From: a virus
Lineage: Duplodnaviria > Caudoviricetes
Length of the DNA: 64,000 nucleotides
Virus record (IMG/VR): IMGVR_UViG_3300028591_000072
Location: 128,001 to 192,000 of that record
Direction: 5' to 3' (one strand)
Below, one piece after another: positions 1 to 62,370 of this stretch (its first letter is position 1; the number at the start of each line of letters is the position of its first letter). Both the position numbers and the translations under genes were made by a program. The notes beneath the pieces were generated by a model. That model searched no databases. It was not told the origin of the DNA and saw only the letters and a list, made by a program, of their open reading frames with translations.

Positions 1-127
1 CGTCTTTATTTTCACGCTGTTCGTCAATTACACGTTTAAAACCGCCTATTACATCTGTTTCTATTCCTGTCATACTTCCTGACTCATCTATTACAAAAAC
101 AATATTTACAAAACCGTTTTTACTCAT
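1..127 (-). CDS. von Willebrand factor A (vWA) domain protein, N-terminal part (runs off window)
   Basis: Not in the ORF track. Minus-strand translation from ATG 127 is MSKNGFVNIVFVIDESGSMTGIETDVIGGFKRVIDEQRENKD, with a hydrophobic strand and the MIDAS motif DxSGS. The start overlaps the upstream stop (ATGAGTAA). Confidence 0.8.
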   Translation of the reverse strand, partial: MSKNGFVNIVFVIDESGSMTGIETDVIGGFKRVIDEQRENKD

Positions 128-4966: not shown

Positions 4967-4970
4967 ATAA

Positions 4971-5001
4971 AAAAAAGTCGGTCAAATGGCCGACTTTTTT
5001 T
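4971..5001. terminator. Bidirectional intrinsic terminator
   Basis: AAAAAAGTCGGTCA-aa-TGGCCGACTTTTTTT between convergent genes. Confidence 0.8.
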
Positions 5002-6535
5002 ATGCCTCAGTTTCTACTTCATTTTCAAATTCAAGAGCGTTTATTTTCTCTTCTTTTGCATCCAAAACATCAAGTATTGTACCGATTACAATGTCTTTAT
5101 ATTCTTTTGACATAAATTTGCCTGTCAATGGGTCCACATCAACAATTTCAAGCATTGCTTTTGGCATGTCTCCATCTTCAAAATCCTCAAGTTCTTCAAG
5201 AGTCATATTGAAAACAATTTCAGCAAACCTTGCTTTCACCTTGTCAATTCCAAGTTGTCTTTCACGTTTCATTCTTTCAATGTAATCGTTTTTGATTTGT
5301 TCCCAATCCATTTCACAGTAATCCAAATACGGTGGTTCCCATTCAGGATGCGACATCCAAAACTTAATTTCCCTATCATCAAGAGTCATAAGTTGTTCAT
5401 ATGTGTCTTGGTCTGATTCTTTATTTGGGAAGCCATTGCATAATTCACATTGGTCATATGTGAAATATTGTCTGTCATCAGGATTTGTAATTAAAATTTT
5501 ATTTCTAATTTCAGGCCTGAAGCAAACCAAAAGAGGCGTAATTCTTTTATTGAATTGGTCAATATACTTTTGTACATTATATTCTTCGCCCTCTTTACAC
5601 ATTATATCTTCTTCTGAATCAACAATTTCTCTTGGTACCAATTTGCAATTAAGTATGACCTCATCTTCGATTATAACATCTGAATGATGTCTTTTTACAT
5701 AATCGTTGAATGACAAAGCACGTTCTTTTGGCGCTAACTTTCCATCAACATTGTTTTTTTTCCATTCTTTTTCCAATGCAACCCTGTAATCGGTTTTTTC
5801 TCCAAATAATCCGTCTACTTTATAATAATGGGTTACTTTTTTTGCATCGGTTTGTGATTTTGTCTTACCGATATTGATATAATAAATGGTTTCTCCCATA
5901 CTGACATCAAGATTCTCTCTCAATGCAAGTTCCATCCATGCTTGTCTTGATTTAGGCCTACCTGCTTTTGTTATTGTTTTGCAATCTTCAATATATTCAT
6001 CCAATGATTTTTTAATTTTTCCTTTTGAAGCAATCATTTTCAATGGAATTTGATAATTGTAAATTTTTTCGATATAGTCATAATATGCTTCAATAAAGTC
6101 TTGGCCTTTTTTGCTCAAAAGAAGTCTTATACCTTTTTCCAAGAATTTTGAAATATATTCAGGCATTTTTTTGGATTTAATTGTGTTACCAACCATTTTA
6201 ACATCCTTCGGAAATTCTTCATCAGGGAAATAGTCTGCATAGTTCTTTCTACTAAAGTTAATTGTTGCATCAACTATTTCGTCAATTCCAAGACCCATTT
6301 TATTAACGCAATTAGGACCATAATGAAAATCTTTCATAAACATATCATTAAACTCAGCAACATCAGCTTTAAATCCAGTATATTCTGCACCCGGTTTAGT
6401 TTCTCTTGAAAGACCTAAACTAACATATGGGTTATTTTTTGAATATCTATATTCACTTTTTTCAACATTTAGCCCAAAATACTTTGGTAAAGTAAGGGTC
6501 TTATCTTTTACTTTTATATTATAAAATTTACTCAT
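5000..6535 (-). CDS. Family B DNA polymerase, C-terminal part (rest of palm and thumb), with a 26-aa intein-C-like leader
   Basis: GLGIDE...NFSRKNYA (KKRY-equivalent), KMVGNTIKSKK, GETIYY, YNVQKYIDQF thumb-like motifs; follows the N-terminal part across a nuclease gene. Confidence 0.8.
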   Translation of the reverse strand: MSKFYNIKVKDKTLTLPKYFGLNVEKSEYRYSKNNPYVSLGLSRETKPGAEYTGFKADVAEFNDMFMKDFHYGPNCVNKMGLGIDEIVDATINFSRKNYADYFPDEEFPKDVKMVGNTIKSKKMPEYISKFLEKGIRLLLSKKGQDFIEAYYDYIEKIYNYQIPLKMIASKGKIKKSLDEYIEDCKTITKAGRPKSRQAWMELALRENLDVSMGETIYYINIGKTKSQTDAKKVTHYYKVDGLFGEKTDYRVALEKEWKKNNVDGKLAPKERALSFNDYVKRHHSDVIIEDEVILNCKLVPREIVDSEEDIMCKEGEEYNVQKYIDQFNKRITPLLVCFRPEIRNKILITNPDDRQYFTYDQCELCNGFPNKESDQDTYEQLMTLDDREIKFWMSHPEWEPPYLDYCEMDWEQIKNDYIERMKRERQLGIDKVKARFAEIVFNMTLEELEDFEDGDMPKAMLEIVDVDPLTGKFMSKEYKDIVIGTILDVLDAKEEKINALEFENEVETEA

Positions 6536-8000
6536 TTTTCCAAATATATTTAATTAATCCGCAATCCCATATTTTTATAAAACCAAGTTTGTCACAAATT
6601 TCTTTTTCTGTTAATGTGGTATCTATTTTATATTTTTTATATAAAATATTTTTTCTAAATCCAAATTTATGAAATCTTTTTTGCTCTCCACCTTTTATGT
6701 ATTTATAATCTGGCGGTGTGTACTTTTCAAAATTAAAACCAATTTTTGTATAAAAATTTCCAATTAAGTCATTAGACCATCTTCTATCAGCAAATGACTT
6801 TACTTCTTTTGGATTATATTTTTTAATAAAATAAGAAAAAAGTTTTCCTCCTACTCCACAACAAATTTTTGATGTATCCGTCGCATATCTGTTTAATTCC
6901 CATTTGTCACCATTCTTTTTTTCTTTTTTAAAAGTCATTACTCCAATTAATTCTCCTTTGTAAAAACATCCTAAATATACACTTGATTTTACTTCTCCTT
7001 GAATGTGAAATGAGTTTAAGAATTGCTTTGATTCACTATATGTTATATCTTTTACATTGCAATTTCTTGCATAAATTTTATCATTTGTTGTTTTGTTTAA
7101 AATATGAGAAATCTTATTTAACACTATTTCTTTTTTATAAAGATATTCATCTTCAAATATTTGAATTAGTCTTATACCATTATTTTTACACATTTCTGTT
7201 TTTTCCAAATGATAATTTTTATTTTTTATACATTTTTCAGAATGCCAAAAAAGTCCATTATATTCAATTCCTATTTTATATTTTGGAATGTAGATATCTA
7301 TTTCAAATGGCTTAATAGATTCTCTATCATTTTTTATAACATTATCTTTTCCTATTAATGAAACAATGTATTCGTAAATTTCATTTTCTGGCTTTGAAAT
7401 TTTAGAAAAGCAAGAAGGACATCCTCCTTGTGGCGATGTTAAATGGTCACACGCAATTTTTTCAAACTCAGTACCACAATCATTACATTTTATTGTAATT
7501 TTAGAATGGCTATTTTCATATTCTTTTTCAATATATGGAAATGAATATTTTTCGCCAAATCTATTTGTTGATTCTTTTATAAAATGTGAAAAATCATTTT
7601 TTCTATATTCTGAAGCATATTTTTTTCCACACAACGGGCATCCTTGTCCTCTTAAATGATTATTAGCTGCTTGTTCAAAATCGCCATGAATTTTACAAGT
7701 AATAATAACTTTACTTCTTTTATTTACATATTTAGTTTTTGAATAATCGTACCTGTTACCGTGAACACTTATTGCTTTTTCAATAAAAGATTCAGAATCT
7801 CTCTTTTTTAACCCAACACATGAAGGGCATCCATTTCCATTAAGATGTGAGTACGGCTTTTGCCAAAACTCGCCATGCTTAGGACATATTATACAGACTT
7901 TTGTTTGTGAATTAACATAATAAGCCTTAGAATAATCATATTTATTTCCGTGTATTAATTTTGCTTTTTCAATAAAAATTTCAGTATTATATTTTTCCAT
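6528..8000 (-). mobile_element. Free-standing homing-type endonuclease inside the polB locus (Zn repeats + PD-(D/E)xK + Hef/GNAT-like C-terminal domain)
   Basis: CPKHGEF/CKIHGDF repeats; EIDIYIPKYKIGIEYNGLFWH; WELNRYA...GGKLF...SFADRRWS; own CTATTTAT at 8028-8035. Confidence 0.8.
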
Positions 8001-8036
8001 ATGCTTGTTTATAATCCATTTTTATTAATAAATAGT

Positions 8037-10295
8037 TCATACTTCACAAAAATTAATTTCTTTTACGGAAATCCATTCATTATCTATTAATACATCAATA
8101 TTGTCATTTATTTTTTTCATTAATTCATTTATAGGAACAAATAATATATTTTCAGAATTTTTTTCTCTTATGCATAATTTAGTATCTTCACTAAATTTAG
8201 TATTTTCTCCTTCATATCTTGGAACAACATATTCAGTAATAACCGGTTCAATCTTGTTTTCTGGAATTGGCAATTTAAAGTTGAATCCATCTGTATCTCC
8301 AACAATTGGTTGATATCCAAGTTTTGTAAACCAATAAATCATTAGTCTAAGTGCCATTCTGCCTGTACATGTTATTCTTTCAGCACTATCAATTGAACCC
8401 CATGGAAATAAATTAGTTGCAGAGTATGACCCGAACATTGAGTTACCAAAAATTTTCAATGGTAATTGTTTTTTATCATTTGCTGATTCTTCTTGTGCCG
8501 CATTCAACATTTTTCTGTTAAGTTCATCTTTTAACTGTAAATCAGAGCAAGATTCTATTTCTTTTTTATATTTATCTTTTTCTTTGGCAGCTTTTTTCTT
8601 TAATCCTTTATATTTTTCACGTTGAGTTAAAACATGCTCTAAAAAATGAAGCATAGAATTTAACAAATCCTTTTCATTTGTAATACCCCATGTAAGCATG
8701 ATTGATGGATAAAGCGAATTATAGTCAAATTTTGCTACATTATCAACAAATCCTACTTTTAGGAGGCGGGAAAGACCTCCTGTAAATGTTTTTCTTTCAG
8801 AAAATTGAGGAATTGCCAAGTTATTTTCATAACTCCAAGCAAGCATAATTGATTTCCACTGGCCAGCAGTACCCATTGTACAGCACTTGTCAAATGGAAC
8901 AGGAATCATTTTACAAATAAGGAAGTTTGGGGTGTTGTAACGATGTTCAACCATGTCACATTCCCACAAGTCATCAAGCAAATACTTTTGTCCTATATAT
9001 TTTCCGTCAACAACTTTATATCCATCCAAAAGTTTGTTCTTTGTGTAAAGAACAAAAGTTGGGTTGTCTTTTCCTTTTTTCAATAATAGTTCTTCACTTT
9101 CACAAGTATGATTTTCGTCATATATATACCAATCGCCTGTTTCATCGTTAATTGCGAATTTTCTATTTTTATCGTTGTAAATATCTGAAATTTTGTCACC
9201 TGGTATATAAACACGGTCTTCTTTAATCAAATCTGAATATTTACTAACATATTTCAAGTTTGAGAAAAGCATATTTGAATCCAATGCTTGTGCTCTTCTT
9301 ACAGCATGCAATGAATCAGTTACAATAATATTTGGTACGATTGTTTTATTGAATTTTTCAATTTCTCCACCCAATTTAAGAATTGATTCACGTTCATCTT
9401 TTCTAATTGATTCTCCATTGAAAAATTTCTTTGATAGTTCTTCAAGAGAAGTTCCAAGTCTTTCACAAGCGCCAATAATTAACTGCCAGTCAAATGCTTC
9501 TCCATTATGTGCACTAATTACATCGGGCCTAAAAGTATAAATTATTTTTAAGAATGTTATAATACCATTTAATTCTGAAATATTTTTTTCCTCTTCAGTA
9601 TTACCCTCAACATTAATTAATTTTTCAAATTTAATATATTCCCCTTTATATTTTACAGGGCGATTAAATCTTATACCAAACTGTTCTATTCTATCTTTTT
9701 TTGTATTAAGACCTGTTGACTCTAAGTCGAATATAAGTCTTAGAATATCATTATAATCCTCATACCCCTTAAAGAACCTCTTTCCTGTTGAAATCATGAA
9801 TTGCTCTTTGGGAGTAACAGTTAAATACTGTTTTTCTTCTTTTTGTTGGGTTCCACCTTTGTCATCTTTCTTTTTTCTACTCGAAACAGGATTTCCTGCT
9901 TTTTTGAAAAAATCCAAAAAGTCGGAATAACTCATCGGTACTGTTGCATAGAACAAATATGTGTATCCATTCTTAATTTCTTCAACAACTTCACCGTCCG
10001 AATTAGTTACATCAAGTGCCTTAACCCATATTCTATATTTTTTTAGAAGATATCTTACTTTTTGCTTATCGCCATTGCATAGCCTTTTACAAGCATTTTC
10101 AGTTGCCCACAAAAACGGCATAAATGGCTCTTGAGAAACACATTTGTCATCGTTTTCGTTTCTGTAAAATACTGTTATGAAATTATTTTGGTATTTATAG
10201 TCAAGGTTTACAATTCTTTCTTGTTCGTCTCTACCATTTAAAAATGTACTGATTACTTCAGGAGTAATCTCTTTTTTAATAAAATTTTGTCCCAT
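8037..10295 (-). CDS. Family B DNA polymerase, N-terminal part (3'-5' exonuclease, motifs A, B, C), with an intein-N-like tail
   Basis: ExoI FDLEST, ExoII HNGEAFD, ExoIII YLLDD; motif A DYNSLYPS, motif B KIFGNSMFG, motif C GDTDG (8300-8286). Confidence 0.9.
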   Translation of the reverse strand: MGQNFIKKEITPEVISTFLNGRDEQERIVNLDYKYQNNFITVFYRNENDDKCVSQEPFMPFLWATENACKRLCNGDKQKVRYLLKKYRIWVKALDVTNSDGEVVEEIKNGYTYLFYATVPMSYSDFLDFFKKAGNPVSSRKKKDDKGGTQQKEEKQYLTVTPKEQFMISTGKRFFKGYEDYNDILRLIFDLESTGLNTKKDRIEQFGIRFNRPVKYKGEYIKFEKLINVEGNTEEEKNISELNGIITFLKIIYTFRPDVISAHNGEAFDWQLIIGACERLGTSLEELSKKFFNGESIRKDERESILKLGGEIEKFNKTIVPNIIVTDSLHAVRRAQALDSNMLFSNLKYVSKYSDLIKEDRVYIPGDKISDIYNDKNRKFAINDETGDWYIYDENHTCESEELLLKKGKDNPTFVLYTKNKLLDGYKVVDGKYIGQKYLLDDLWECDMVEHRYNTPNFLICKMIPVPFDKCCTMGTAGQWKSIMLAWSYENNLAIPQFSERKTFTGGLSRLLKVGFVDNVAKFDYNSLYPSIMLTWGITNEKDLLNSMLHFLEHVLTQREKYKGLKKKAAKEKDKYKKEIESCSDLQLKDELNRKMLNAAQEESANDKKQLPLKIFGNSMFGSYSATNLFPWGSIDSAERITCTGRMALRLMIYWFTKLGYQPIVGDTDGFNFKLPIPENKIEPVITEYVVPRYEGENTKFSEDTKLCIREKNSENILFVPINELMKKINDNIDVLIDNEWISVKEINFCEV

Positions 10296-10346: not shown

Positions 10347-10862
10347 TTATAGTACATTAATAATATAGTCCCTTACTCTTCCAAGGACTTTTCCTAAAAG
10401 ATTTTGCCCTTTCCATTTATTTTCATCGTCTATAATTGGGTTATTCCATTCAATACCGCAACCCCATATAAAATCATATTTAGAACCTTCGACAAATGTT
10501 TTATCCAATAAATCTTCTCTTGTAATCAATCGTGCCAAATATTCATTTTGGCAAAATTTTGCAAGTACAACATTATACATTATGTCTTCGCAAACCTCAG
10601 ACCATTGTTCTGAATTAAAATTTTTTACTTGTCTACCTAATTTCTTTGCTTCTTTTGGAGTTTTTGCCTTTAAAATAAGGTCTGCAATCTCTTTATCCTT
10701 AAAATACAAAGCCTTTTCATACATATACGCTTGTTCAGAAGATTTAAACTCAATGCCTAAATATGTTAACTTGCATTCATGAAAGTTTGAGAATTCAGAA
10801 CCCCAAAACGCAATGTGATTGTCATAAACAATAAATCCGTTTCTATCAAAATTTTGTATCAT
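10347..10862 (-). CDS. NADAR (YbiA-like) family protein
   Basis: FSNF...SSEQAYMYEKA...AKKLGRQV...KF.QN...VEGS..D.IWG.G...GQNLLG. Confidence 0.9.
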   Translation of the reverse strand: MIQNFDRNGFIVYDNHIAFWGSEFSNFHECKLTYLGIEFKSSEQAYMYEKALYFKDKEIADLILKAKTPKEAKKLGRQVKNFNSEQWSEVCEDIMYNVVLAKFCQNEYLARLITREDLLDKTFVEGSKYDFIWGCGIEWNNPIIDDENKWKGQNLLGKVLGRVRDYIINVL

Positions 10863-21066: not shown

Positions 21067-21094
21067 AAAGCCAATGGATTTCATTGGCTTTTTT
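21067..21094 (+). terminator. Intrinsic terminator after sheath
   Basis: AAAGCCAATG-gattt-CATTGGCTTTTTT. Confidence 0.8.
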
Positions 21095-21161
21095 GTAATT
21101 TTTTTTTCATTAAAAAAAACTTTTTCAGGATTTTCACTATTTATTAAAAAAAAAGTTATAT

Positions 21162-22144
21162 ATGAAAAAAAAATAAATGATTTTATAGAAAAAGCAAACT
21201 TTGTTCATAAAAATAAATATGATTATTCAAAAGTTAAATATAATAATTGTAAAGAAAAAGTATGCATTATATGTTCAGAACATGGTGAATTTTGGCAAAC
21301 GCCAGATGGACATATACAAGGAAGAGGGTGCCCTGTTTGTCGTTATATAAATTCATCAAAAAATAATGCATTAACAAAAGAAAGTTTTATAAAAAAAGCA
21401 AAAAAAATTCATGGTGATAAGTATGACTATTCAAAAGTTGAATATGTTAATAATAGAACGAAAGTTTGTATAATTTGTCACGAAAAAGATGAATTTGGTA
21501 ATGAACATGGTGAATTTTGGCAAGACCCAACAGGACATATTGATAAGAAAGCAGGATGCCCAAGATGTTCAAAAAATCACAAATATACAACTGAAGAATT
21601 TTTAAATAAATTACCACTATGGTTGAAAGAAAAATATGATTTTTCAAAATTTTCATATGTTAGAACACATGACAAATCAATATTAATATGTCGTGAGCAT
21701 GGCGAATTTTTAATATCACCACACAATATAATTAAAGGGGTTGGATGTCCTGGATGTAGTGAAAGTAAACTTGAAAGGCAAATTAGACTTTTTTTAAAAG
21801 AAAAAAATATTGTGTTTATATCGGAATATAAACATAATAAAAATTTTGGAAAACAGGCGATAGATTTTTATTTACCTGATTATAATATTGCAATAGAGTG
21901 TCAAGGAATACAGCATTTTATGCCAACTGATTTTGCCGGAAAAGGAAATGAATGGGCTGAAAATGAATATGAACATATTATAGAACTTGATTTGAATAAA
22001 CAAATATTATGTAAAGAAAATAATATTAGTCTTTTGTATTTTACAACAAATGAAAATAAACAATTAGTGACTGAATCAAGAAATATGCATTTTAATGGTT
22101 ATTATATTTTTACTGATGTTGAAGAATTAAATAACTATTTATGA
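21162..22144 (+). mobile_element. Homing-type endonuclease (3 Zn repeats + PD-(D/E)xK); probable start ATG 21162 is out of frame across an A9 tract
   Basis: HGEF repeats; IDFYLPDYNIAIECQGIQH. The ORF-track ATG (21074) lies in the terminator, upstream of the promoter motif at 21137. Confidence 0.7.
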
Positions 22145-25569: not shown

Positions 25570-25600
25570 AAAAAGGCTGAAATTAACATTCAGCCTTTTT
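25570..25600. terminator. Bidirectional terminator
   Basis: AAAAAGGCTGAA-attaaca-TTCAGCCTTTTT. Confidence 0.75.
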
Positions 25601-27247
25601 CCATATATATCTGATTAAGCCACAGTCGTATATCTTTTCATACCCAAGTTGTTTCGTCATTTCTGATTCTGTCATTGATAACGGTAATCCATATTTATGG
25701 TTTAGCGTTTTTTTTCTAAAGCCAAACTTATGCTGCCTTTTGATTCCATCGGAAGGGTTGAAGTATTTGTAATCCGGCGCTGTATATCCGTCAAATACAA
25801 ATCCAAGCTTTGTATAGACATTTGATTCTTCGTTTATTGTCCATCTTCTGTCTGCAAAGGATTTAATAACGTCAGGACCGTATTCCCTTACGAAATATTT
25901 GAACAGTTTACCACCAACACCTTGGCAAATGTAATTGTAATCACTTGCAAATCTAACCAATTCCCATCTATTGCTTTCTTTTGTTTCTTTTTTGAACGAC
26001 ATTACGGCTATTAGCGAATTGTTAAAAAATGCACCAATGTTAATTGTAGAAGGACCATATCCTTGTATGTGGTATTTGTTAAGGAAACTTTTAGCCAAGC
26101 CATTGTCAATTTCCTTTATTTCACATTTTCTTCCCATTATTTTTGGAAGGTTTTCGCTAACACCAACCAAATGCTTTATCTTGTTTAGTACAATATCCTT
26201 GCTGTTTACGTATTCATCTTCGAAAATCTGGATTAGTTTTACCCCCTTTTCTTTACAAGCATTTAGTTTTTTTAAATGGTTGTTTTTTTCTATGTTTGAA
26301 TGCCAAAAAAGTCCATTATATTCAATCCCAATTTTTAATGACGGAACATAAATATCTATTTCTTTTGGAAGAATTAGTTTTCTTTCGCTTTGTATTACAT
26401 TTTCTTTTCCAATTAATGATGTAACATAATCAAAAATTTCAGATTCTGCTTTTGATATATGATGAACACACTTTGGGCATCCGTTTCCGTCAAGATGCCT
26501 CCATGGAGCTTGCCAAAATTCGCCGTGTTTTGGGCATATTATGCAAACTTTGTTTTTTCCCGTAACATATTCAGTTTTTGAATAATCATATTTGTTATTA
26601 TGTATTTTGTTTGATTTTTCAATGAAATCTTCGGTTGTTAATCTTTTTGACAAACCAAGTTCTTCATGGGAACATTTTTTACAAGATGAACCTTTAAGAT
26701 GCAAATATGGCAATTGATAAAATTCTCCATGTTTAGGGCAAATTATACAAACTTTTGTAAGCATATCAACGTATTCTGTTTTTGAATAGTCATATTTACA
26801 ATTATGCACTTTATTTGCCTCTTGTACAAAAGTTTCCGTTGTGTATTTTTTATTCTTATGGATTGATTTTGAACATATAGGACAACCTTTTCCTTTTAAA
26901 TGGTTATGTGGGTCTTGAAAAAATTCGCCGTGTTCTGGGCATATTATACAAACTTTTGTGTGGCTATTAACATATTCAACTTTTGAGTAGTCATATCTAT
27001 TTCCATGTATTTGTTTTGCTTTTTTAATGAACGAGCTATTAGAACTCTTCATTGTTTTTGAACAGAATGGGCATCCTTGTCCAATTAAATGTTTATCTGG
27101 CCTTTGAGAAAATTTTCCATGTTTTTTACAAATTATTGTTATGTTAGTTTTATTGTTTGTATAAGATACTTTTGAATAGTCATATCTATCTCCATGTATT
27201 TGTTTTGCTTTTTCTATAAAAGTTTTTGTTGTATTTTTTTTACTCAT
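25583..27247 (-). mobile_element. Homing-type endonuclease (4 Zn repeats + PD-(D/E)xK + Hef/GNAT-like domain); paralog of 6528-8000
   Basis: EIDIYVPSLKIGIEYNGLFWH; WELVRFA...GGKLF...SFADRRW. Confidence 0.8.
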
Positions 27248-54182: not shown

Positions 54183-57100
54183 ATGAATGTAAGAAAAAGT
54201 GATGGCTCTTATGAAGAGTTTGATAGAGAAAAAGTTAAGAATGGAATATGTGATGCTTATGTCGAGGCTGGAGAAGAATGTAATGAAATTTTAATTAACA
54301 GCATTGTTGATAACTTGTTTTTGTTCGACAAAATTGATAGTAGTGAGATACGAAGGCAAGTTGAAGATGCATTAATGTCAATAAATAAAAAAGTAGCAAA
54401 GGAATACATCAAGAAATTCGTTTCTGATAGCGAATTAAAGAAAAGGGGTGATTTTATAACGAGTTACATTAATGCCACAAATGCTTCTACTGGTTCAAAA
54501 TACGATTCAAATGCAAATGTAGCAAATAAAAATATTGCGACGTTAAATGCTGAAATACCAAAATTTGAAAATATAATGTTTAACCGTAAAAATACATCTT
54601 CTAGAATAAAGAAATTGTATTCAAATAAGCTGGCCAAACAATATATTGATGATTTAGAAAATCATATAATATATAAACATGACGAAAGTAGTTTTGGGAT
54701 TAATAGTCCATATTGTGTTGCAATTCAATCATATCCTTTTTTAACTGATGGCTTAAAGGGTCTTGGCGGATTGTCCGCAGCGCCTAAAAACATAGATTCA
54801 TATTGTGGAATGTTTGTTAATCTTATTTTTGCAGTTTCCTCTCAGTTTGCAGGCGCTGTTGCTTGTTCTGGCTTTTTTAACATGTTTGATTATTTTGCGA
54901 GAAAGGAATGGGGTGATGATTATTATAAAGAATCAAATAGTTTTTATAAAATTGGATATAAATTAAGAAAATTATTAAATAAGACACATTATTGGACAAA
55001 CAATGTCGTTGAACTTTCAGAACATGATTTTGGTGATGAAGAGATGAATAAATTAAGGGATGAGATTGTGTATGAAAGTACAAGACAATTAACCGAAGAA
55101 GAATTAAAAACTTATATTGAAAACATAAAAAAAGACCCAAATTATGTTTTTCATTTTGGCGATGGTACAAGAACAATTAAGGGCCAAATATACCAATATT
55201 TCCAACAAGTAGTTTATGGAATAAATCAACCTGCCGCAGCAAGGGGATTTCAGAGTGCGTTTGTTAATTTTGGATATTTTGACAAGCCTTATTTTGAAGG
55301 TATGTATGGCGAATTTGTGTTTCCTGACAATACACGTCCTCAATGGGAATCTGTTTCTTTTATACAAAAGACATTTATGAAATGGTTTAATGCTGAAAGA
55401 ACAAGATGCGTTCTTACATTTCCAGTTGAAACAATGTCACTTCTTTATAGGGATGGTGAATATGTTGACAAGGAATACGCTGAATTTACGGCTGAGATGT
55501 TATCTGAAGGACATAGTTTCTTTATTTACACAAGTGATTCACCGGATACATTAAGTTCATGTTGCTTTAGTAAAGACCAAAAAGTGTTATGGAAGTCATC
55601 AACTGGAGGTGTCAATTTAACAACATTAGAGGAATTGCATAATGCGAAATGGGAAACAGAAAAGAAAAATCTAAGGATTTTCCATAACGGAAGTTGGGTT
55701 AATGGGAAGACAGTAAAGTTGTCTAATAGAAAAATGTATAAAGTTGTTACAGAAAACAACAAAGAATTTTATATGACAGATAATCATATAAATGTAACGG
55801 CTGAAGGTGAAAAAACAACGGATAAACTTTCAACTAATGATTATCTAATGTTTAATACAATGGCATTAAATGCCATTTCTGAAAATGATGAACATTTAAC
55901 ATACGAACAAGGCTTTGTCATTGGTGCATTTCTTGGTGATGGTTCATTTGGCAGCGAAGTGAATGGGACCATATATAGTATTAATTTTTCCCAAAATGAA
56001 AAAAAATATGAGAAAATGATGGATATGATTGATAAAGCGAATAAGCAAGTTGGTGGAGATAGTTTTTCCTGTTTAAGAACTGTTTATAATAACGTATATC
56101 CAGTAGAAATAAGTTCAAAAAGACTTGCATCTTTTATCATGAAATGGACAAATTGGCACAGAGGGGTATATGCTTATAATAAAGAATTGAATCTTAATTG
56201 TTTATTACAGTCTGTTGAGTTCAGGAAAGGTATTCTTGATGGATGGTATAATACAGATGGTGGAAATACTAACAGATGTTATACGACAAGCAAAAAACTT
56301 GTTGAATGCATGGAGGCTTTAATTACATCACTAGGAATGCAGTCAATTATAAATGTTAGCAATAGAACAACGGAAATATGTGGCTCTAAAGTTGTTATAA
56401 GGGAAAAGGAATATAATAGAAATTATCCTTTATATTGTGTTAGATGGTACGAGCCTGTTAATAATAGGAAAAACAAGAATAAAGGAAACAGTTGGATAAA
56501 GAAAAACAATTCAATATATTTTAAAATAAAGTCAATCGAGCCATTTGAATATAATGAAGATGTTTATTGTATTGAATGCAATAATGAAGATGAACCTTAT
56601 TTTACATTACCTTCCGGATTGATAACCCATAATTGCAGACTTTCAAATAAGATACAAGAAAACACATTTACGTTTACCAATGGATTAACAGGCGAACAGA
56701 CTGGTTCAAAATCCGTTATTACACTTAATTTCAATAGGATTATGCAAAACTTTGTTAATGAACATTATAATGGTGAAGCGGATTCATTCAACAAGGATAA
56801 ACAAGAGTTCATGGATGGCTTTAAGAAATATTTGCAGCCAATACTTGAAAGAGTATATAAATACCATACGGCATATAATGATATATTATGGGAATTGTAT
56901 AATGCAAATATGCTTCCTGTTTATTCAGCCGGATTCATACATTTAAACAGGCAATATCTTACGCTTGGAATTAATGGACTTAATGAGGCATGGATGTTTT
57001 TGGGCGGAAAATGTAATTACAATAAAGATTATTTATATTTCACTTCTTCAATTACTGGTTTTATGAAACAACAGAATGCAATTCATAAAACAAGAAAAGA

Positions 57101-57578
57101 ACTATTTAACACCGAGTTTGTACCTGCGGAATCACTTGGAATTAAGAATTATAAATGGGACAAAAATGATGGATATTGGGTACCAGAAGGGAGAAATTGC
57201 TATACTTCTTATTTCTTTTTACCTGATGATGATGAAATTTCAATATTAGACAAAATGAAATTACATGGAAAAGAAAATGTTGAGTCAATCGATGGAGGTT
57301 CGGCATGTCATTTACAATTGATGGAGCATTTAAGTATCGAACAATATCGAAAGTTGCTTGATTTCGCCGGTAAAGTAGGATGTAATTACTGGACGGTTAA
57401 CGTAAAAAATAGTGAATGCAAAAATTGCGGATATATTAGTAAACATACGATAAAAAAATGTCCTAAATGTGGAAGTGAAGATTTTGATTATTGGACAAGA
57501 ATAATTGGATATTTGAGAAAAGTAAGTGACTTTAACGAAGGTAGACAAATAGAAGAAAGTAAAAGGGTTTATTCTTAA
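54183..57578 (+). CDS. nrdD: Anaerobic (class III) ribonucleoside-triphosphate reductase containing an intein
   Basis: N-terminal ATP cone, YKHD, SSC/CRL loop, PAESL, CxxC..CxxC, glycyl-radical RIIGYL. Confidence 0.95.
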   Translation: MNVRKSDGSYEEFDREKVKNGICDAYVEAGEECNEILINSIVDNLFLFDKIDSSEIRRQVEDALMSINKKVAKEYIKKFVSDSELKKRGDFITSYINATNASTGSKYDSNANVANKNIATLNAEIPKFENIMFNRKNTSSRIKKLYSNKLAKQYIDDLENHIIYKHDESSFGINSPYCVAIQSYPFLTDGLKGLGGLSAAPKNIDSYCGMFVNLIFAVSSQFAGAVACSGFFNMFDYFARKEWGDDYYKESNSFYKIGYKLRKLLNKTHYWTNNVVELSEHDFGDEEMNKLRDEIVYESTRQLTEEELKTYIENIKKDPNYVFHFGDGTRTIKGQIYQYFQQVVYGINQPAAARGFQSAFVNFGYFDKPYFEGMYGEFVFPDNTRPQWESVSFIQKTFMKWFNAERTRCVLTFPVETMSLLYRDGEYVDKEYAEFTAEMLSEGHSFFIYTSDSPDTLSSCCFSKDQKVLWKSSTGGVNLTTLEELHNAKWETEKKNLRIFHNGSWVNGKTVKLSNRKMYKVVTENNKEFYMTDNHINVTAEGEKTTDKLSTNDYLMFNTMALNAISENDEHLTYEQGFVIGAFLGDGSFGSEVNGTIYSINFSQNEKKYEKMMDMIDKANKQVGGDSFSCLRTVYNNVYPVEISSKRLASFIMKWTNWHRGVYAYNKELNLNCLLQSVEFRKGILDGWYNTDGGNTNRCYTTSKKLVECMEALITSLGMQSIINVSNRTTEICGSKVVIREKEYNRNYPLYCVRWYEPVNNRKNKNKGNSWIKKNNSIYFKIKSIEPFEYNEDVYCIECNNEDEPYFTLPSGLITHNCRLSNKIQENTFTFTNGLTGEQTGSKSVITLNFNRIMQNFVNEHYNGEADSFNKDKQEFMDGFKKYLQPILERVYKYHTAYNDILWELYNANMLPVYSAGFIHLNRQYLTLGINGLNEAWMFLGGKCNYNKDYLYFTSSITGFMKQQNAIHKTRKELFNTEFVPAESLGIKNYKWDKNDGYWVPEGRNCYTSYFFLPDDDEISILDKMKLHGKENVESIDGGSACHLQLMEHLSIEQYRKLLDFAGKVGCNYWTVNVKNSECKNCGYISKHTIKKCPKCGSEDFDYWTRIIGYLRKVSDFNEGRQIEESKRVYS
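55563..56633 (+). mobile_element. Intein with LAGLIDADG endonuclease (357 aa) in nrdD
   Basis: Starts CFSKDQ; block B TDNH; IGAFLGDGS and LDGWYNTDGG; ends THN followed by Cys(+1). Confidence 0.93.
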
Positions 57579-58067: not shown

Positions 58068-58874
58068 ATGAAAAAAAGGTTGGTATTTTTTATATATGTT
58101 GATACGGATTATGTGAACAGTAGAATATATGATGTTCATTTTTATCTTTTAAAACATTTTAAGTATAATTTCGATGAATATACGTTTTGGCTATCATTGA
58201 AAGACTTTAGTGAAGAAAATATAGAATTTGCAAGCGAAATTGTTAAAAAATTAATGTCTTTCGGGTTCACAAAAAATACGGAATATAAAATATATGAAAA
58301 TGATTTTTTAAGGGAAGCAAAATGCTTCAATGAAGAGGTTGTGACGAGAGTTTTTGGTGGTGATAATGAACTTATTTTTTTTGGGTACACAAAAGGCTTG
58401 TCAAATGAATTTAATGATTCATTGCTTTTTTGGATTTGTTCGATGTATTATTTTGGGCTGAATTTTAAAAATCGAATTGATGATATTTTTAATGATAAAA
58501 ATAATCACATTGCGTTTTACGGATTTCCTTTAATGGATTATAACACTTGGAACATTGTTAAATATAATCATATGTATGCAGGTACGTTTTATTGGATTAA
58601 TACTGAAATGGTTAGAAAGATAAAGGATTTTTATAATATTGATTTTTCTGTAATTGAAAATAGGGATTACGCTGAAAATTTTACTGGAGATAATTTTTTG
58701 CCTTGTTTTTGTGGGACATATACTGGAAAAAGAATGCCTTGTTGGGAAATGTATCATTTTTCAAGGAATGGAATGGTTAATGTTTTTAATGAAAATGAAG
58801 GGAATTGTGCGGATTTGAAAGAATTTTGTGAATTTTATAATAAAATGATAAATGATTTAAATATTTTTTTATGA
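58068..58874 (+). CDS. HTKG-family paralog (YTKG variant), putative glycosyltransferase-like
   Basis: YTKGLSN, YAGTFYWIN, AENFTG. Confidence 0.55.
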   Translation: MKKRLVFFIYVDTDYVNSRIYDVHFYLLKHFKYNFDEYTFWLSLKDFSEENIEFASEIVKKLMSFGFTKNTEYKIYENDFLREAKCFNEEVVTRVFGGDNELIFFGYTKGLSNEFNDSLLFWICSMYYFGLNFKNRIDDIFNDKNNHIAFYGFPLMDYNTWNIVKYNHMYAGTFYWINTEMVRKIKDFYNIDFSVIENRDYAENFTGDNFLPCFCGTYTGKRMPCWEMYHFSRNGMVNVFNENEGNCADLKEFCEFYNKMINDLNIFL

Positions 58875-59698
58875 AAAAGAGACTTGTGTTTTTTGTTTAT
58901 GTCGATTGTGCTTATAGGGATTGTTTGATATATGACATACATTTTGCAAATTTATCAAAGTATTATAAGATTTTTGATGCGGCTACAATCTATTTTTCAT
59001 TAAAAGAAATTAATGAAGATAACATGGATATTGTTCGCTATCTTGCAAAAAAAATAATTGATTGTGGGTTTATTAATGATGTTGAAATTAAAATAAGAAA
59101 AAACACTGAAATTCGTGAAGTTGATTGCTTTAAAGAAGAAGTTATTTCAAGGATAGAGAACAACGTTCCTGAACTTGTTTTTTTTACACATACAAAGGGC
59201 ATTTCAAATGTACTAAATGAAAGCCTTTTTAAGTGGATATGTGGAATGTATTATTTTAATTTGAATTTTATTGATGAGGTAAATTGCTTTCTTGTAAGCA
59301 AGCCAATTTATGATACGGCACATAGAAGCGGAATTTTTTATGGATTCCCTTGCCTGGTTAGTAACATTAAGAATTATATAACTAGTCAAGTTTTTTATCC
59401 GGGAACTATATATTGGGTCAATTGTTCAAAGGCTGCTCAATATAATAGATATTTTGAAATAGAGCCGAAAAATAAATATATATATAGCACTAGGTGCTTT
59501 GCTGAAGAGTTTCCTGGCGATTATTTTATGGGCGTTGTTTGCCAAAGTCATTTTATGCAAAATAAAGAGGAATTTTCTTTATATGAAGATTTTGATAAGC
59601 AAATGGAATCAATTTATTCGAATAATTCGTATGCTGATAAAGAAGGGTTTGATTCGTATTGCAATGAAATAAAAGATATCGTATCTTTATATTTTTAA
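58871..59698 (+). CDS. HTKG-family paralog, putative glycosyltransferase-like
   Basis: HTKGISN, YPGTIYWVN, AEEFPG. Confidence 0.55.
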   Translation: MKKRLVFFVYVDCAYRDCLIYDIHFANLSKYYKIFDAATIYFSLKEINEDNMDIVRYLAKKIIDCGFINDVEIKIRKNTEIREVDCFKEEVISRIENNVPELVFFTHTKGISNVLNESLFKWICGMYYFNLNFIDEVNCFLVSKPIYDTAHRSGIFYGFPCLVSNIKNYITSQVFYPGTIYWVNCSKAAQYNRYFEIEPKNKYIYSTRCFAEEFPGDYFMGVVCQSHFMQNKEEFSLYEDFDKQMESIYSNNSYADKEGFDSYCNEIKDIVSLYF

Positions 59699-59709
59699 CG
59701 TTAATAAAT

Positions 59710-60951
59710 ATGATTAATATTTTAAAAGCAATTATTTTTGATGAATTAAAGGAAGAACATCTTGAAATGTATAATGATGTTCTGTCAGATGTTTATTTTG
59801 AAAACAGTGAAAGAGGGTTTGATTTGGTTGTAAGCGATGGAAATGAGAGTATTAATGACTTGTTATATAACAATAAAAATTTTGATTGTTTGATAACAAT
59901 AGGTAATACTGATACCTCATATTATAATGAGCTTATGCACTACGGGTTTGACATTAGGAAAAAGTGGGTAAACATTCCTGAATTTGATGCCAACAAAATG
60001 GCTAAAATAATAATTGATACATTTTATACCAATTTAAATAGGGAACGTGGAAGTGAAAATAAGCTGTTTTCATTTTTTACGTGTACATTTAATACTAGCA
60101 ACGATGAACTTACGAGGCTATATAATTCGTTTGTAAATCAAACATATACTGAATGGAATTGGTATATACTTGATGATAGTACAAATGATAGTGTAATTGA
60201 ATTTATAAAATCATTGAAAGATTATAGGATTACAATTATTAAAAATGTTACTGACCATGGAAGTATTGGATTTAATAAAAGAACAATAGCAATGATGTGT
60301 GATGGCGATTATTTGGTTGAGGTTGACCATGATGATGAATTGACTCCTGATTGCCTTTATTATCTGAAAACTGCATTTAATATGTATCCTGATACTGATT
60401 TTGTTTATTCTGACGCTGTTGAGGATATTGAGGGTGAATCTTGTATATATGGAGATGGATGGGGATGGGGGGAAGGGACTCATAGAGATGAGGTTGTAAA
60501 TGGAAAAAGCATAAAATTGTCAGTGAGTCCTGAGATAAATCCGTTCTCAATAAGAACAATTTTTGCCCAGCCAAATCATGTTAGGTGCTGGAAAAAGTCG
60601 TTTTACCATAAAATAGATGGCCATAACGTGTCTTTTGGTGTTTTGGATGATATGGAAATACTTATACGCACTTTTTTATACGGAAAAATGACAAAGGTTG
60701 ATAAGGTACTTTATATACAGTATGAAAAGAGAAATAGAATGGGGGGAAACGGAACTGCACAAGCAAGAAGGTTTGGCGAAATACAAAGAACATGCTGGCT
60801 TTTAAAAGAATATTATGACAAAAAGGTACATGATAGAATAATAGAACTTGGATATTTTGATAATGCTTGGGACTATAATTCCGGATGCTCTATATTATGG
60901 AAGAATCATAAGCCTGGATGTGAAATAATGAGCCATTTACTAAAGCCTTGA
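59710..60951 (+). CDS. Family 2 glycosyltransferase
   Basis: NQTY.EW..YILDDS, VDHDD (DxD), FVYSD, DD.E. Confidence 0.85.
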   Translation: MINILKAIIFDELKEEHLEMYNDVLSDVYFENSERGFDLVVSDGNESINDLLYNNKNFDCLITIGNTDTSYYNELMHYGFDIRKKWVNIPEFDANKMAKIIIDTFYTNLNRERGSENKLFSFFTCTFNTSNDELTRLYNSFVNQTYTEWNWYILDDSTNDSVIEFIKSLKDYRITIIKNVTDHGSIGFNKRTIAMMCDGDYLVEVDHDDELTPDCLYYLKTAFNMYPDTDFVYSDAVEDIEGESCIYGDGWGWGEGTHRDEVVNGKSIKLSVSPEINPFSIRTIFAQPNHVRCWKKSFYHKIDGHNVSFGVLDDMEILIRTFLYGKMTKVDKVLYIQYEKRNRMGGNGTAQARRFGEIQRTCWLLKEYYDKKVHDRIIELGYFDNAWDYNSGCSILWKNHKPGCEIMSHLLKP

Positions 60952-60980
60952 AAAACGCTTTATAATACAATATACTAACA

Positions 60981-61010
60981 AAAATGGGCGGTTTTTTGCC
61001 GCCCATTATT
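60981..61010. terminator. Terminator between convergent glycosyltransferase genes
   Basis: AATGGGCGG-tttttg-CCGCCCATT-type hairpin. Confidence 0.7.
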
Positions 61011-61011
61011 G

Positions 61012-62370
61012 TTATTTTACAATAAATATTTTATTTTTTGTTTTTCTGAAATCCTCGTAAATTCCTTTAAATGCATTTGAAAATAGTTGTTGTTCTGAAT
61101 CTATAATCAATGTTTTAATAAACGAAGTTTCTTTTGAAATTACTTCATCAATTGATTTTGCTTTTTTGCAAAAACTTGGGATATATGATTTGTCGTTGTT
61201 TGCTATTACAAATATATTATTAAAATATCTGTTTGCATAATATATTAACGATGCATTAAAATTATTTGATTTAATGATTATGTTTGTATGTTGCATAAAT
61301 TCTTTTAATTCTGAAGCAATTTTAAAGTTTTCATTCGTTGAATTGTCAAGTTCATATAACAATTCTGATGTTTCAATATAATCTTTTGGAAAATTATATT
61401 CAAGTTCTTTTTTGTATAGTTTTTTATATATTTTTTTTAAATATGGTTTGAATATGTTATTATCTCTGTTTTTTTTGAAAAAATCAAGAATTAAATATTC
61501 TGCTGTGTCGTTTTCTTTTTTTACTTTAGTGATGTCATAAAGAAGTTTAACCTTTAGTGGGTCTTTTGTTGCAAGAGGGTCATTTATCATTGTCATTGCA
61601 AAAAATTCATAATCAGTAAGCCTTCCAATTGAGAAATTATGGACACGATAATCAAATGATGAACTAATTCTATTGTATGAAAATGTATTTGATAATATTT
61701 TTTTACACAAAGGAATGTCATCCCATAATAATGTGTAATAAAAATAATTAAAATAGTCACAATCAACATTTTGCAAATTATTGTCTTCTAATAATGATTT
61801 TAGGAATATTTCTTTATATTTCCAATATTGTGCTTTTGCTCCACCATGTTTTTTGTGCAATATTCTTCCGTTTTTAAAAGTCGTTTCACTTGGATGCTTT
61901 TCAAGAATATGTATGCTTTCATGAACTGGATTTAGCCAAAACGGATTTGCACTTTTTCTTATTATACTTCTACTGTCATAGCATAAAGTGTTTATTTCGT
62001 TTCCGTTTTCATCAAAGTTTGTTAGTGGTACATATATTTTTGTAAAATTAAAGAAATTGTTTTCTTTGTAATATTTTATTTCGTTTTGCAGTGTTTCTTC
62101 AAAAACTTCATCTGCATCGGTGGTTAATACATAGTCACATGTTGTTTTTTCAAGTGAAAAGTTTCTTGCTTTTGAGAAATCATCACACCATTCAAAATCA
62201 TATAATTTTATTTTTGGATTATTTAAATGTTTTATGATTTCTTTTGTCTTATCTGTTGAACCTGTGTCTGTAATAATTATTTCATCTGAAAATGAAATAA
62301 TGGAATCAATACATCTTTTTATTACTGATTCTTCGTTTTTAACTATTAAATATGTGCTTAATGTTTTCAT
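61012..62370 (-). CDS. Family 2 glycosyltransferase
   Basis: IVKNEE, DTGSTD, DFSKARN, DADE, VHE. Confidence 0.88.
   Translation of the reverse strand: MKTLSTYLIVKNEESVIKRCIDSIISFSDEIIITDTGSTDKTKEIIKHLNNPKIKLYDFEWCDDFSKARNFSLEKTTCDYVLTTDADEVFEETLQNEIKYYKENNFFNFTKIYVPLTNFDENGNEINTLCYDSRSIIRKSANPFWLNPVHESIHILEKHPSETTFKNGRILHKKHGGAKAQYWKYKEIFLKSLLEDNNLQNVDCDYFNYFYYTLLWDDIPLCKKILSNTFSYNRISSSFDYRVHNFSIGRLTDYEFFAMTMINDPLATKDPLKVKLLYDITKVKKENDTAEYLILDFFKKNRDNNIFKPYLKKIYKKLYKKELEYNFPKDYIETSELLYELDNSTNENFKIASELKEFMQHTNIIIKSNNFNASLIYYANRYFNNIFVIANNDKSYIPSFCKKAKSIDEVISKETSFIKTLIIDSEQQLFSNAFKGIYEDFRKTKNKIFIVK

Follow-up and report, generated by a model that had tools for sequence, protein, structure and literature searches.

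A phage DNA polymerase gene split by a mobile nuclease cassette with a putative half-Hint clasp

In the DNA stretch analyzed here (64,000 nucleotides, positions 128,001 to 192,000 of the IMG/VR virus record IMGVR_UViG_3300028591_000072, hereafter the window), the family B DNA polymerase gene (polB) of a phage is distributed over two open reading frames (ORFs) that are separated by the gene of a free-standing nuclease. The first chain ends with an additional segment (the tail) and the second one begins with another (the head). The explanation that we regard as probable, with some reserve, is that tail, nuclease and head form a mobile cassette and that the two polymerase chains are left unligated and are helped by a half-Hint clasp. 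According to this explanation, a cassette consisting of an acidic tail, a Vsr-like nuclease and a basic head would have been inserted in the palm loop just past motif C of polB and would spread between polB alleles, most likely through homing driven by the nuclease. The two chains would be translated separately from one operon and would never be ligated. Tail and head would be reciprocally trimmed pieces of one pseudo-symmetric Hint subdomain, derived from the split-intein family of the neighboring motif-C site, which would dock at the end of a short linker and form a half-Hint clasp beside the palm; this docking would promote or stabilize the assembly of the two-chain polymerase. Both the docking of tail and head and its usefulness are what we infer.

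An earlier note on this DNA had described PolB as two ORFs around a nuclease gene with a break just past motif C, and three ORFs on the minus strand were confirmed. The N-chain (8037..10295, 752 amino acids, aa) comprises the N-terminal and 3′-5′ exonuclease domains, the motifs A, B and C, all of which lie within this part, and a tail of 76 aa. It is followed by a spacer of 36 nt (8001..8036), which is the sole non-coding DNA within the insert, by the putative homing endonuclease (6528..8000, 490 aa) and by the C-chain (5000..6535, 511 aa, PHROG 1918) with the remaining palm and the thumb. The start codon of the C-chain and the stop of the nuclease gene overlap by 8 nt. Motif C is located at 8297 and the Hint-like stretch starts at 8198; the break lies ten residues past motif C, at the equivalent of about residue 550 in archaeal PolB, in a loop of the palm.

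Compared with the whole alleles L001, L002 (1163 aa) and L076, the insert lengthens the N-chain by 76 residues and the C-chain by 26. Whole alleles, which are up to 97% identical to the window, carry neither the tail nor the head, and the Leu-Pro after motif C is followed within at most four residues by Tyr/Phe-Arg-Tyr, as had been expected from the junction of FKLP and YRY in an uninterrupted PolB. The N-chain is 97% identical to L001 (666 columns) and the C-chain shares 90–94% identity with the C-terminal region of whole alleles. A module of about 53 + 26 aa had been proposed; this size holds for the Hint-like part of 53 aa but not for the insert on the N-side, which amounts to 76 aa including a linker of 23 residues.

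In total, 13 tails and 7 heads with identities of 26–99% were collected. The tail is composed of the linker (8199..8267, minus strand, 23 aa), which is conserved in the 13 tails and contains two invariant prolines, and the half-Hint (8040..8198, minus strand, 53 aa), which corresponds to about residues 1–51 of an intein, carries a Lys in place of the nucleophile and stops before block B. The profile search against Hint that had been suggested for this end was positive: the last 53 tail residues were aligned by HHalign to the first 61 residues of the N-halves of the pol-c intein, the split intein at motif C in polB of sister phages (probability 91, E 1e-6, 47 columns). A hidden Markov model (HMM) of the tail, searched over 3,783 reading frames, found its best non-self matches in the starts of pol-c inteins (best E 0.016), and the genome's other four inteins were not matched in these frames. 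The pol-c intein profile itself matches solved inteins in the PDB, with 9hth and the Nanoarchaeum NEQ068 intein as solved relatives. The AlphaFold 2 (AF2) model of the window tail reached a predicted local distance difference test score (pLDDT) of 80, with about 90 in the Hint part, without the head being present. For the AF2 models of two tails with 26% identity, inteins top a wide fold search, with matches that are in register with intein residue 1 and end near residue 51 of the Npu intein. The top seven rows are all inteins (Z 3.1–3.9, Npu residues −1..51); the leading intein rows show Z 3.9–4.2 and a root-mean-square deviation of 2.3–3.2 for 53–54 aligned residues. Due to these low Z-scores and to GYF and BRK domains close behind, the fold result counts only jointly with the sequence results. 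Taken together, HHalign, HMM and fold establish the Hint origin of the tail. Judged from the sequence comparisons, its closest relative is the motif-C split intein of the sister phages and not the nrdD intein of the window. The end of the N-part is thus intein-like, as the earlier note had stated, but the alignment to the nrdD intein start given there is marginal (p 0.033) and pol-c is closer.

No Hint match of the tail was obtained in Pfam, NCBIfam, PHROGs or PDB sequence searches, and Foldseek returned nothing under E 0.001; ESM Atlas matches with intein families (0.79 and 0.75) are considered as leads only. For the linker, no intein homology could be detected by sequence. In both models, the linker extends back towards the Hint part, where its position coincides with that of the C-terminal strand in a circularly permuted Npu intein (5ol6, Z 3.1–3.3, weak). 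A circular permutation, with the linker as a displaced C-half, is given no support by sequence comparison.

The head (6458..6535, minus strand), delimited from seven aligned heads, comprises 26 aa, is basic and lacks His-Asn. It starts four residues before the Tyr of block F and has its own Pro and Ser, both invariant in the seven heads. Among the comparisons made, it agrees best with the block-F strand in the C-half of the pol-c intein (p 0.003 with 300 shuffles, about 0.04 after 12 comparisons), which weakly suggests an intein origin of the head. The alignment to the end of the nrdD intein, on which the earlier note had relied, is no better than shuffles (p 0.58). The head as a continuation of the N-half into block B found no support either (p 0.67). 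The Ser following the head (6455..6457, minus strand), possibly a former +1 residue, is invariant in the seven heads and agrees with the +1 Ser/Thr/Cys of split inteins; several alleles without a tail share a Ser at this position, but the nearest ones do not. Because intein residues 1–51 and the block-F strand onward form, as we presume from intein topology, one of two pseudo-symmetric subdomains, the truncations of tail and head would be reciprocal and would together give one Hint subdomain, the one to which the termini belong. The second subdomain is missing, as only 53 and 26 residues are present and no complete two-subdomain horseshoe is formed; a two-subdomain architecture is described for the Hint fold of inteins (PMC7664689).

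As read from the 13 tails and 7 heads, every splicing residue is lost. The residue before an invariant Phe, which corresponds to intein position 1, is K, K, N, T, T, L, V, I, A, D, D, Y and T in the 13 tails and never Cys or Ser, in agreement with the Lys reported before for the window. Furthermore, the Hint start lies 23 residues from the host polymerase sequence and not directly after the N-extein. Block B with its Thr-x-x-His, also recorded as missing before, is absent from all copies, with tails ending at about intein residue 51–61 and heads without any His. The reported replacement of His-Asn by Glu-Lys with retention of the +1 Ser has its counterpart in all heads, where the invariant Ser is preceded by Lys or Glu (7/7) and a terminal Asn/Gln is absent. 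None of the seven heads contains a Cys, so that the block-F Cys of class 3 inteins (Trp-Cys-Thr triad) is absent too.

A group I intron at the insert was searched with Rfam without a match, and only 36 non-coding bases are available; the sensitivity of Rfam is limited here, since one intron was found in L098 and none at a similar break in L089 or L095. Contigs from a sheep-gut RNA library that match the window at 100% identity span the junctions of polymerase with tail, of tail with nuclease, and of nuclease, head and polymerase, all in unspliced form. These contigs may include DNA and show the presence of the unspliced form, which cannot exclude a rare spliced form. A spliced mRNA, named earlier as evidence that would contradict the proposed dimerization module, was not encountered in them, and with the same caveat no joint linking 8270 to 6455 was found in the library. 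The other RNA joints listed are incompatible with the insert, and their sides are shorter than 36 bases.

The substitution pattern indicates that the tail is under purifying selection as a protein. The ratio of non-synonymous to synonymous substitution rates (dN/dS) is 0.14–0.37 for close pairs of tails and 0.01–0.2 for the flanking polymerase. In the pooled close tail pairs, 55 of 223 synonymous and 70 of 953 non-synonymous sites differ (Fisher p 7e-12). The charges are opposite in all copies, with −6 to −11 for tails and +1 to +6 for heads. Modeling of the tail-head complex, a check proposed before, gave a score of 0.55 compared to 0.21 for the best of three controls, with at least 94% of contacts shared between runs and a partner pLDDT of at least 62; scores up to 0.60 are more often wrong than right unless the pairing is likely beforehand. 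Of the 80 solved pairs 58 attained the mark, and of the 110 mismatched ones 2 did; 7 of the solved pairs and both of the mismatched ones scored in the range up to 0.60. Because structures of split-intein complexes have been solved, the score may reflect likeness to them. The model thus hints at a binding of tail and head. Concerning the idea of dead Hint pieces as a heterodimerization module, the Hint origin of the tail, the loss of splicing residues, the two chains and the selection on the tail stand, whereas the origin of the head and the binding are no more than suggested.

Tail and head were found together in 6/6 distinct loci with both ends readable and in no insert-free allele. No split allele that has an authentic start but lacks the tail was seen among the relatives, and no fused tail-head protein was found, which is a weak negative. 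In a tree of the host polymerase part, from which three distant loci without a recovered N-part were left out, monophyly of the tail-bearers was rejected (approximately unbiased (AU) test, p 2.8e-6) and at least four changes are needed. The nearest kin of the window on this tree are a whole allele (97% identical) and a pol-c-intein allele, and the tail-bearer P0002 is sister to the whole allele L002. Synonymous differences between the window and L109 amount to 3/43 in the tail vs. 42/89 upstream, and to 2/45 vs. 58/91 and 8/45 vs. 72/90 in two further pairs; in all three, the synonymous divergence of the tail is far below that of the flank just upstream (p 2e-6 to 6e-12). Beside the insertion, the identity to the whole allele L001 drops from 97–100% to 79–89%, and the G + C content is 0.23–0.26 in tail, nuclease and head and 0.31–0.32 outside. 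These patterns mark tail, nuclease and head as a low-GC mobile cassette that passes between alleles, with homing and co-conversion as the most likely cause of its spread. The resolution of the tail tree was too poor for naming donors.

The nuclease contains zinc-finger-like repeats, a putative Vsr-like catalytic domain and a C-terminal GNAT/Mom-like domain. It matches PHROG 559 (E 2e-121) and PHROG 3339 (E 3e-105), the labels of which differ, and its Vsr matches are weak (E 0.002–0.003, below cut-off). Wherever the sequence after a tail can be read, it encodes a nuclease of this family, and where the next gene is readable as well, it begins with a head. The tail-associated nucleases form two groups, L088 belonging to that of the window, and their single origin is neither shown nor excluded. 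A four-base target duplication at the nuclease ends was rejected as it is not conserved in relatives. The GNAT/Mom-like domain (window 6528–7060, E 0.003–0.013) is kept across the nuclease family and might modify DNA or aid self-protection. Paralogous repeat-bearing nuclease genes are located at 120–1277, 21074–22144 and 25583–27247 of the window, and at least seven are present in the genome.

Whole, intein-split, clasp-split and doubly split polB alleles coexist at 90–97% identity. L102, L103 and probably L101 combine a live pol-c intein and the dead module in one gene, and the middle chain of doubly split alleles has about 120 residues and carries the second motif-C aspartate. The polymerases of these three loci appear to consist of three pieces; the contigs are short and the third piece was not seen in them. 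When the three-piece middle protein P0027 was modeled, its active pol-c C-half showed no docking on the tail (pLDDT <50, uninformative). The middle part in L103 (6886–7277) and L104 is broken right after the catalytic Asp-Gly, where the stop overlaps a TTG restart with a short duplication; this break was seen in two runs and possibly results in a four-piece polymerase. At one shared site, the polB C-chain is interrupted again in L098 (6913–7217), L089 (about 9400–9700) and L095 (about 7690–8100), with an Rfam group I intron in L098 only.

Further observations concern the other inteins. P0028 (L099, 7494–8015) contains a second, decayed pol-c intein N-half without Ser-1 and with a deleted block-B region, and its C-terminal extension is 67% identical to that of L100; by its sequence, it is a parallel case of trimming to one subdomain. 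Pol-c N-halves without a C-half ORF nearby in the ORF listing are present in L071/L091 (after 7305), L093 (7522–7819) and L099, and other mobile genes intervene after the N-half in L071 and L099. The pol-c N-halves of L089–L100 (about 5330–5580) have a conserved extension of about 80 residues past the Hint part, and an unrelated gene of 302 aa, not a nuclease, lies between the intein halves in L096 (5582–6490). Four contiguous inteins were found elsewhere in the genome: that of nrdD (window 54183–57578) and three on G000:C1, at 58622–61114, 79516–81339 and 101948–105637, in genes annotated by eye as UvrD-like helicase, prohead protease and portal.

A number of points weigh against the clasp and its mobility. 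The profile search that had been proposed for the head gave no call by HHalign with the pol-c intein (probability 2), and homology of the head is marginal; the heads also diverge fast (dN/dS 0.16–1.0, with saturated pairs). The fold Z-scores of the tail are below 5, with GYF/BRK domains scoring almost as well, and the tail models well without the head, so the head may be unneeded by the tail. The charge pattern is not a rare one, as 15% of the C-termini in the genome are as acidic and 13% of the N-termini as basic. The tree pattern leaves the direction of change unfixed, replacement by whole alleles also contributes, and general recombination is frequent in these polB genes. By analogy, the clasp may be dispensable because the natural split of Methanothermobacter PolB falls at about Pfu 550, in the loop where the break maps. 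The tails of Aeromonas phage Aeh1 are essential yet unneeded for heterodimer formation (PMC3045599), which cautions that ‘clasp’ may not describe the role precisely. The wider proposal of a distinct type of mobile element, in which a homing nuclease renders its insertion into an essential gene harmless by a split single-subdomain Hint clasp that is required for reassembly, without RNA or protein splicing, is put forward tentatively, at slightly less than an even chance.

The main rival explanation is that the chains assemble via the native palm/thumb interface alone and that tail and head are relics that fold harmlessly, cap the ends or carry translation signals. It can draw on intein-free natural PolB splits that work (Methanothermobacter in the same loop, T4-like gp43A/B), on the tail modeling alone and on the low conservation of the head. 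The tail, however, is under purifying selection across 26–43% identity with conserved length and hydrophobic pattern, no split allele with an authentic start was seen to lack the tail and the charges are opposite in every copy; relics are considered unlikely, if worth serious attention. A tail that is functional with another partner, folding on its own proline-containing linker as a GYF/BRK-type module and binding a replisome factor or the nuclease, would agree with the confident fold of the tail alone, the two invariant linker prolines and the position of GYF and BRK close behind inteins in both fold searches. Such a likeness is expected for a small beta-alpha-beta arrangement, though; the head always accompanies the tail with its own invariant Pro and Ser, and the tail-head model beats unrelated partners by 0.34 (weak), which makes another partner improbable.

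Less probable still is a covalent joining of the halves, be it through a non-canonical form of trans-splicing or through removal of the insert from the RNA by splicing. The invariant Ser after the head would fit, and polB of sister phages does contain genuine split inteins and group I introns; against this, Cys/Ser-1, block B, the block-F Cys, the terminal Asn/Gln and half of the fold are missing, the Hint start is 23 residues away from host sequence, and the insert offers only 36 non-coding bases, no Rfam intron and unspliced RNA contigs (which may be DNA). A dead polB pseudogene broken by the nuclease deserves hardly any credence: with a genome that is about 82% complete another polymerase could be outside the assembly, but the only polB found in the genome has all motifs intact, its flanks show a dN/dS of 0.01–0.2 and the same layout occurs in many distant phages.

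The window is part of a viral contig of 302,581 bases, about 82% complete, which genes for tail sheath, portal, prohead protease and capsid-like proteins mark as that of a jumbo bacteriophage. It is a gut phage, and the sheep-gut RNA library contains 82% of the words of the window stretch. No relatives were found among GenBank phages. PolB matches in the genome are restricted to the locus described here (two ORFs, 752 + 511 aa). A NADAR-family gene (window 10347–10862) is located directly upstream of polB and is kept in close relatives; a terminator-like hairpin (4970..5001, minus strand), a pattern match only, lies at the operon end, and promoter counts equal those in shuffled sequence.

Among known systems, the Aeh1 locus nrdA-a/mobE/nrdA-b likewise has an essential gene split by a nuclease gene, oppositely charged tails and no splicing (PMC3045599). 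Crona et al. speculated that the Aeh1 tails may be remnants of a degenerate split intein (PMC3045599); no intein homology is shown for them, whereas the tail described here is recognizably Hint. The polarity is reversed, with a basic tail on the N-chain of Aeh1 and an acidic one here, and the Aeh1 tails serve tetramer formation (PMC3045599), while the present cassette is seen on many alleles. If true, the clasp would supply a definite source for the assembly tails of ‘genes in pieces’, whose descent from inteins was no more than a conjecture of Crona et al. It would also show that intein evolution can lead to an outcome different from loss, with splicing given up and docking and mobility kept, and would be a natural folded half-Hint, the unit thought to be ancestral to the Hint fold via duplication. 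The coexistence of allele types at 90–97% identity makes the contribution of the clasp directly testable, and a non-splicing heterodimer module of 80 residues could serve as a protein-pairing tool.

Two-chain family B polymerases are known from Methanothermobacter, whose PolB is naturally split about 83 residues past Pfu 467, in the same palm loop (PMC3061061), and from T4-like phages, whose gp43A/gp43B are split in the fingers (PMC2988022); the halves of phage 25 gp43 co-purify and are active (PMC2988022). The accessible parts of these two sources describe no Hint-derived docking module. Natural non-splicing half-Hint (dead-intein) docking modules were not found in the literature covered, which included few subscription papers. 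The fractured genes of Dassa et al. (2009) resemble the present locus in their gene halves around a free-standing nuclease, Vsr-like there and putatively so here, and in their intein-derived ends, but their inteins are complete and splicing, whereas here half of the domain and all catalytic residues are gone (PMC2677866). An intein-less SbcD-like locus with extensions of 25 and 9 residues was also listed there (PMC2677866). The pol-c split inteins (L089–L100) are the closest sequence relatives of tail and head and occur in the same gene with the same nuclease family between their halves; they sit inside motif C and keep Ser-1, the block-B His and Asn-Thr, whereas the dead module lies ten residues downstream. 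New here are the organization of tail, nuclease and head as a mobile cassette, the selection on the tail and the apparent three-piece relatives. In the way it works, the split polB locus is comparable to the Aeh1-type genes in pieces, and in its layout to the fractured genes, and it stands outside the membership of split inteins.

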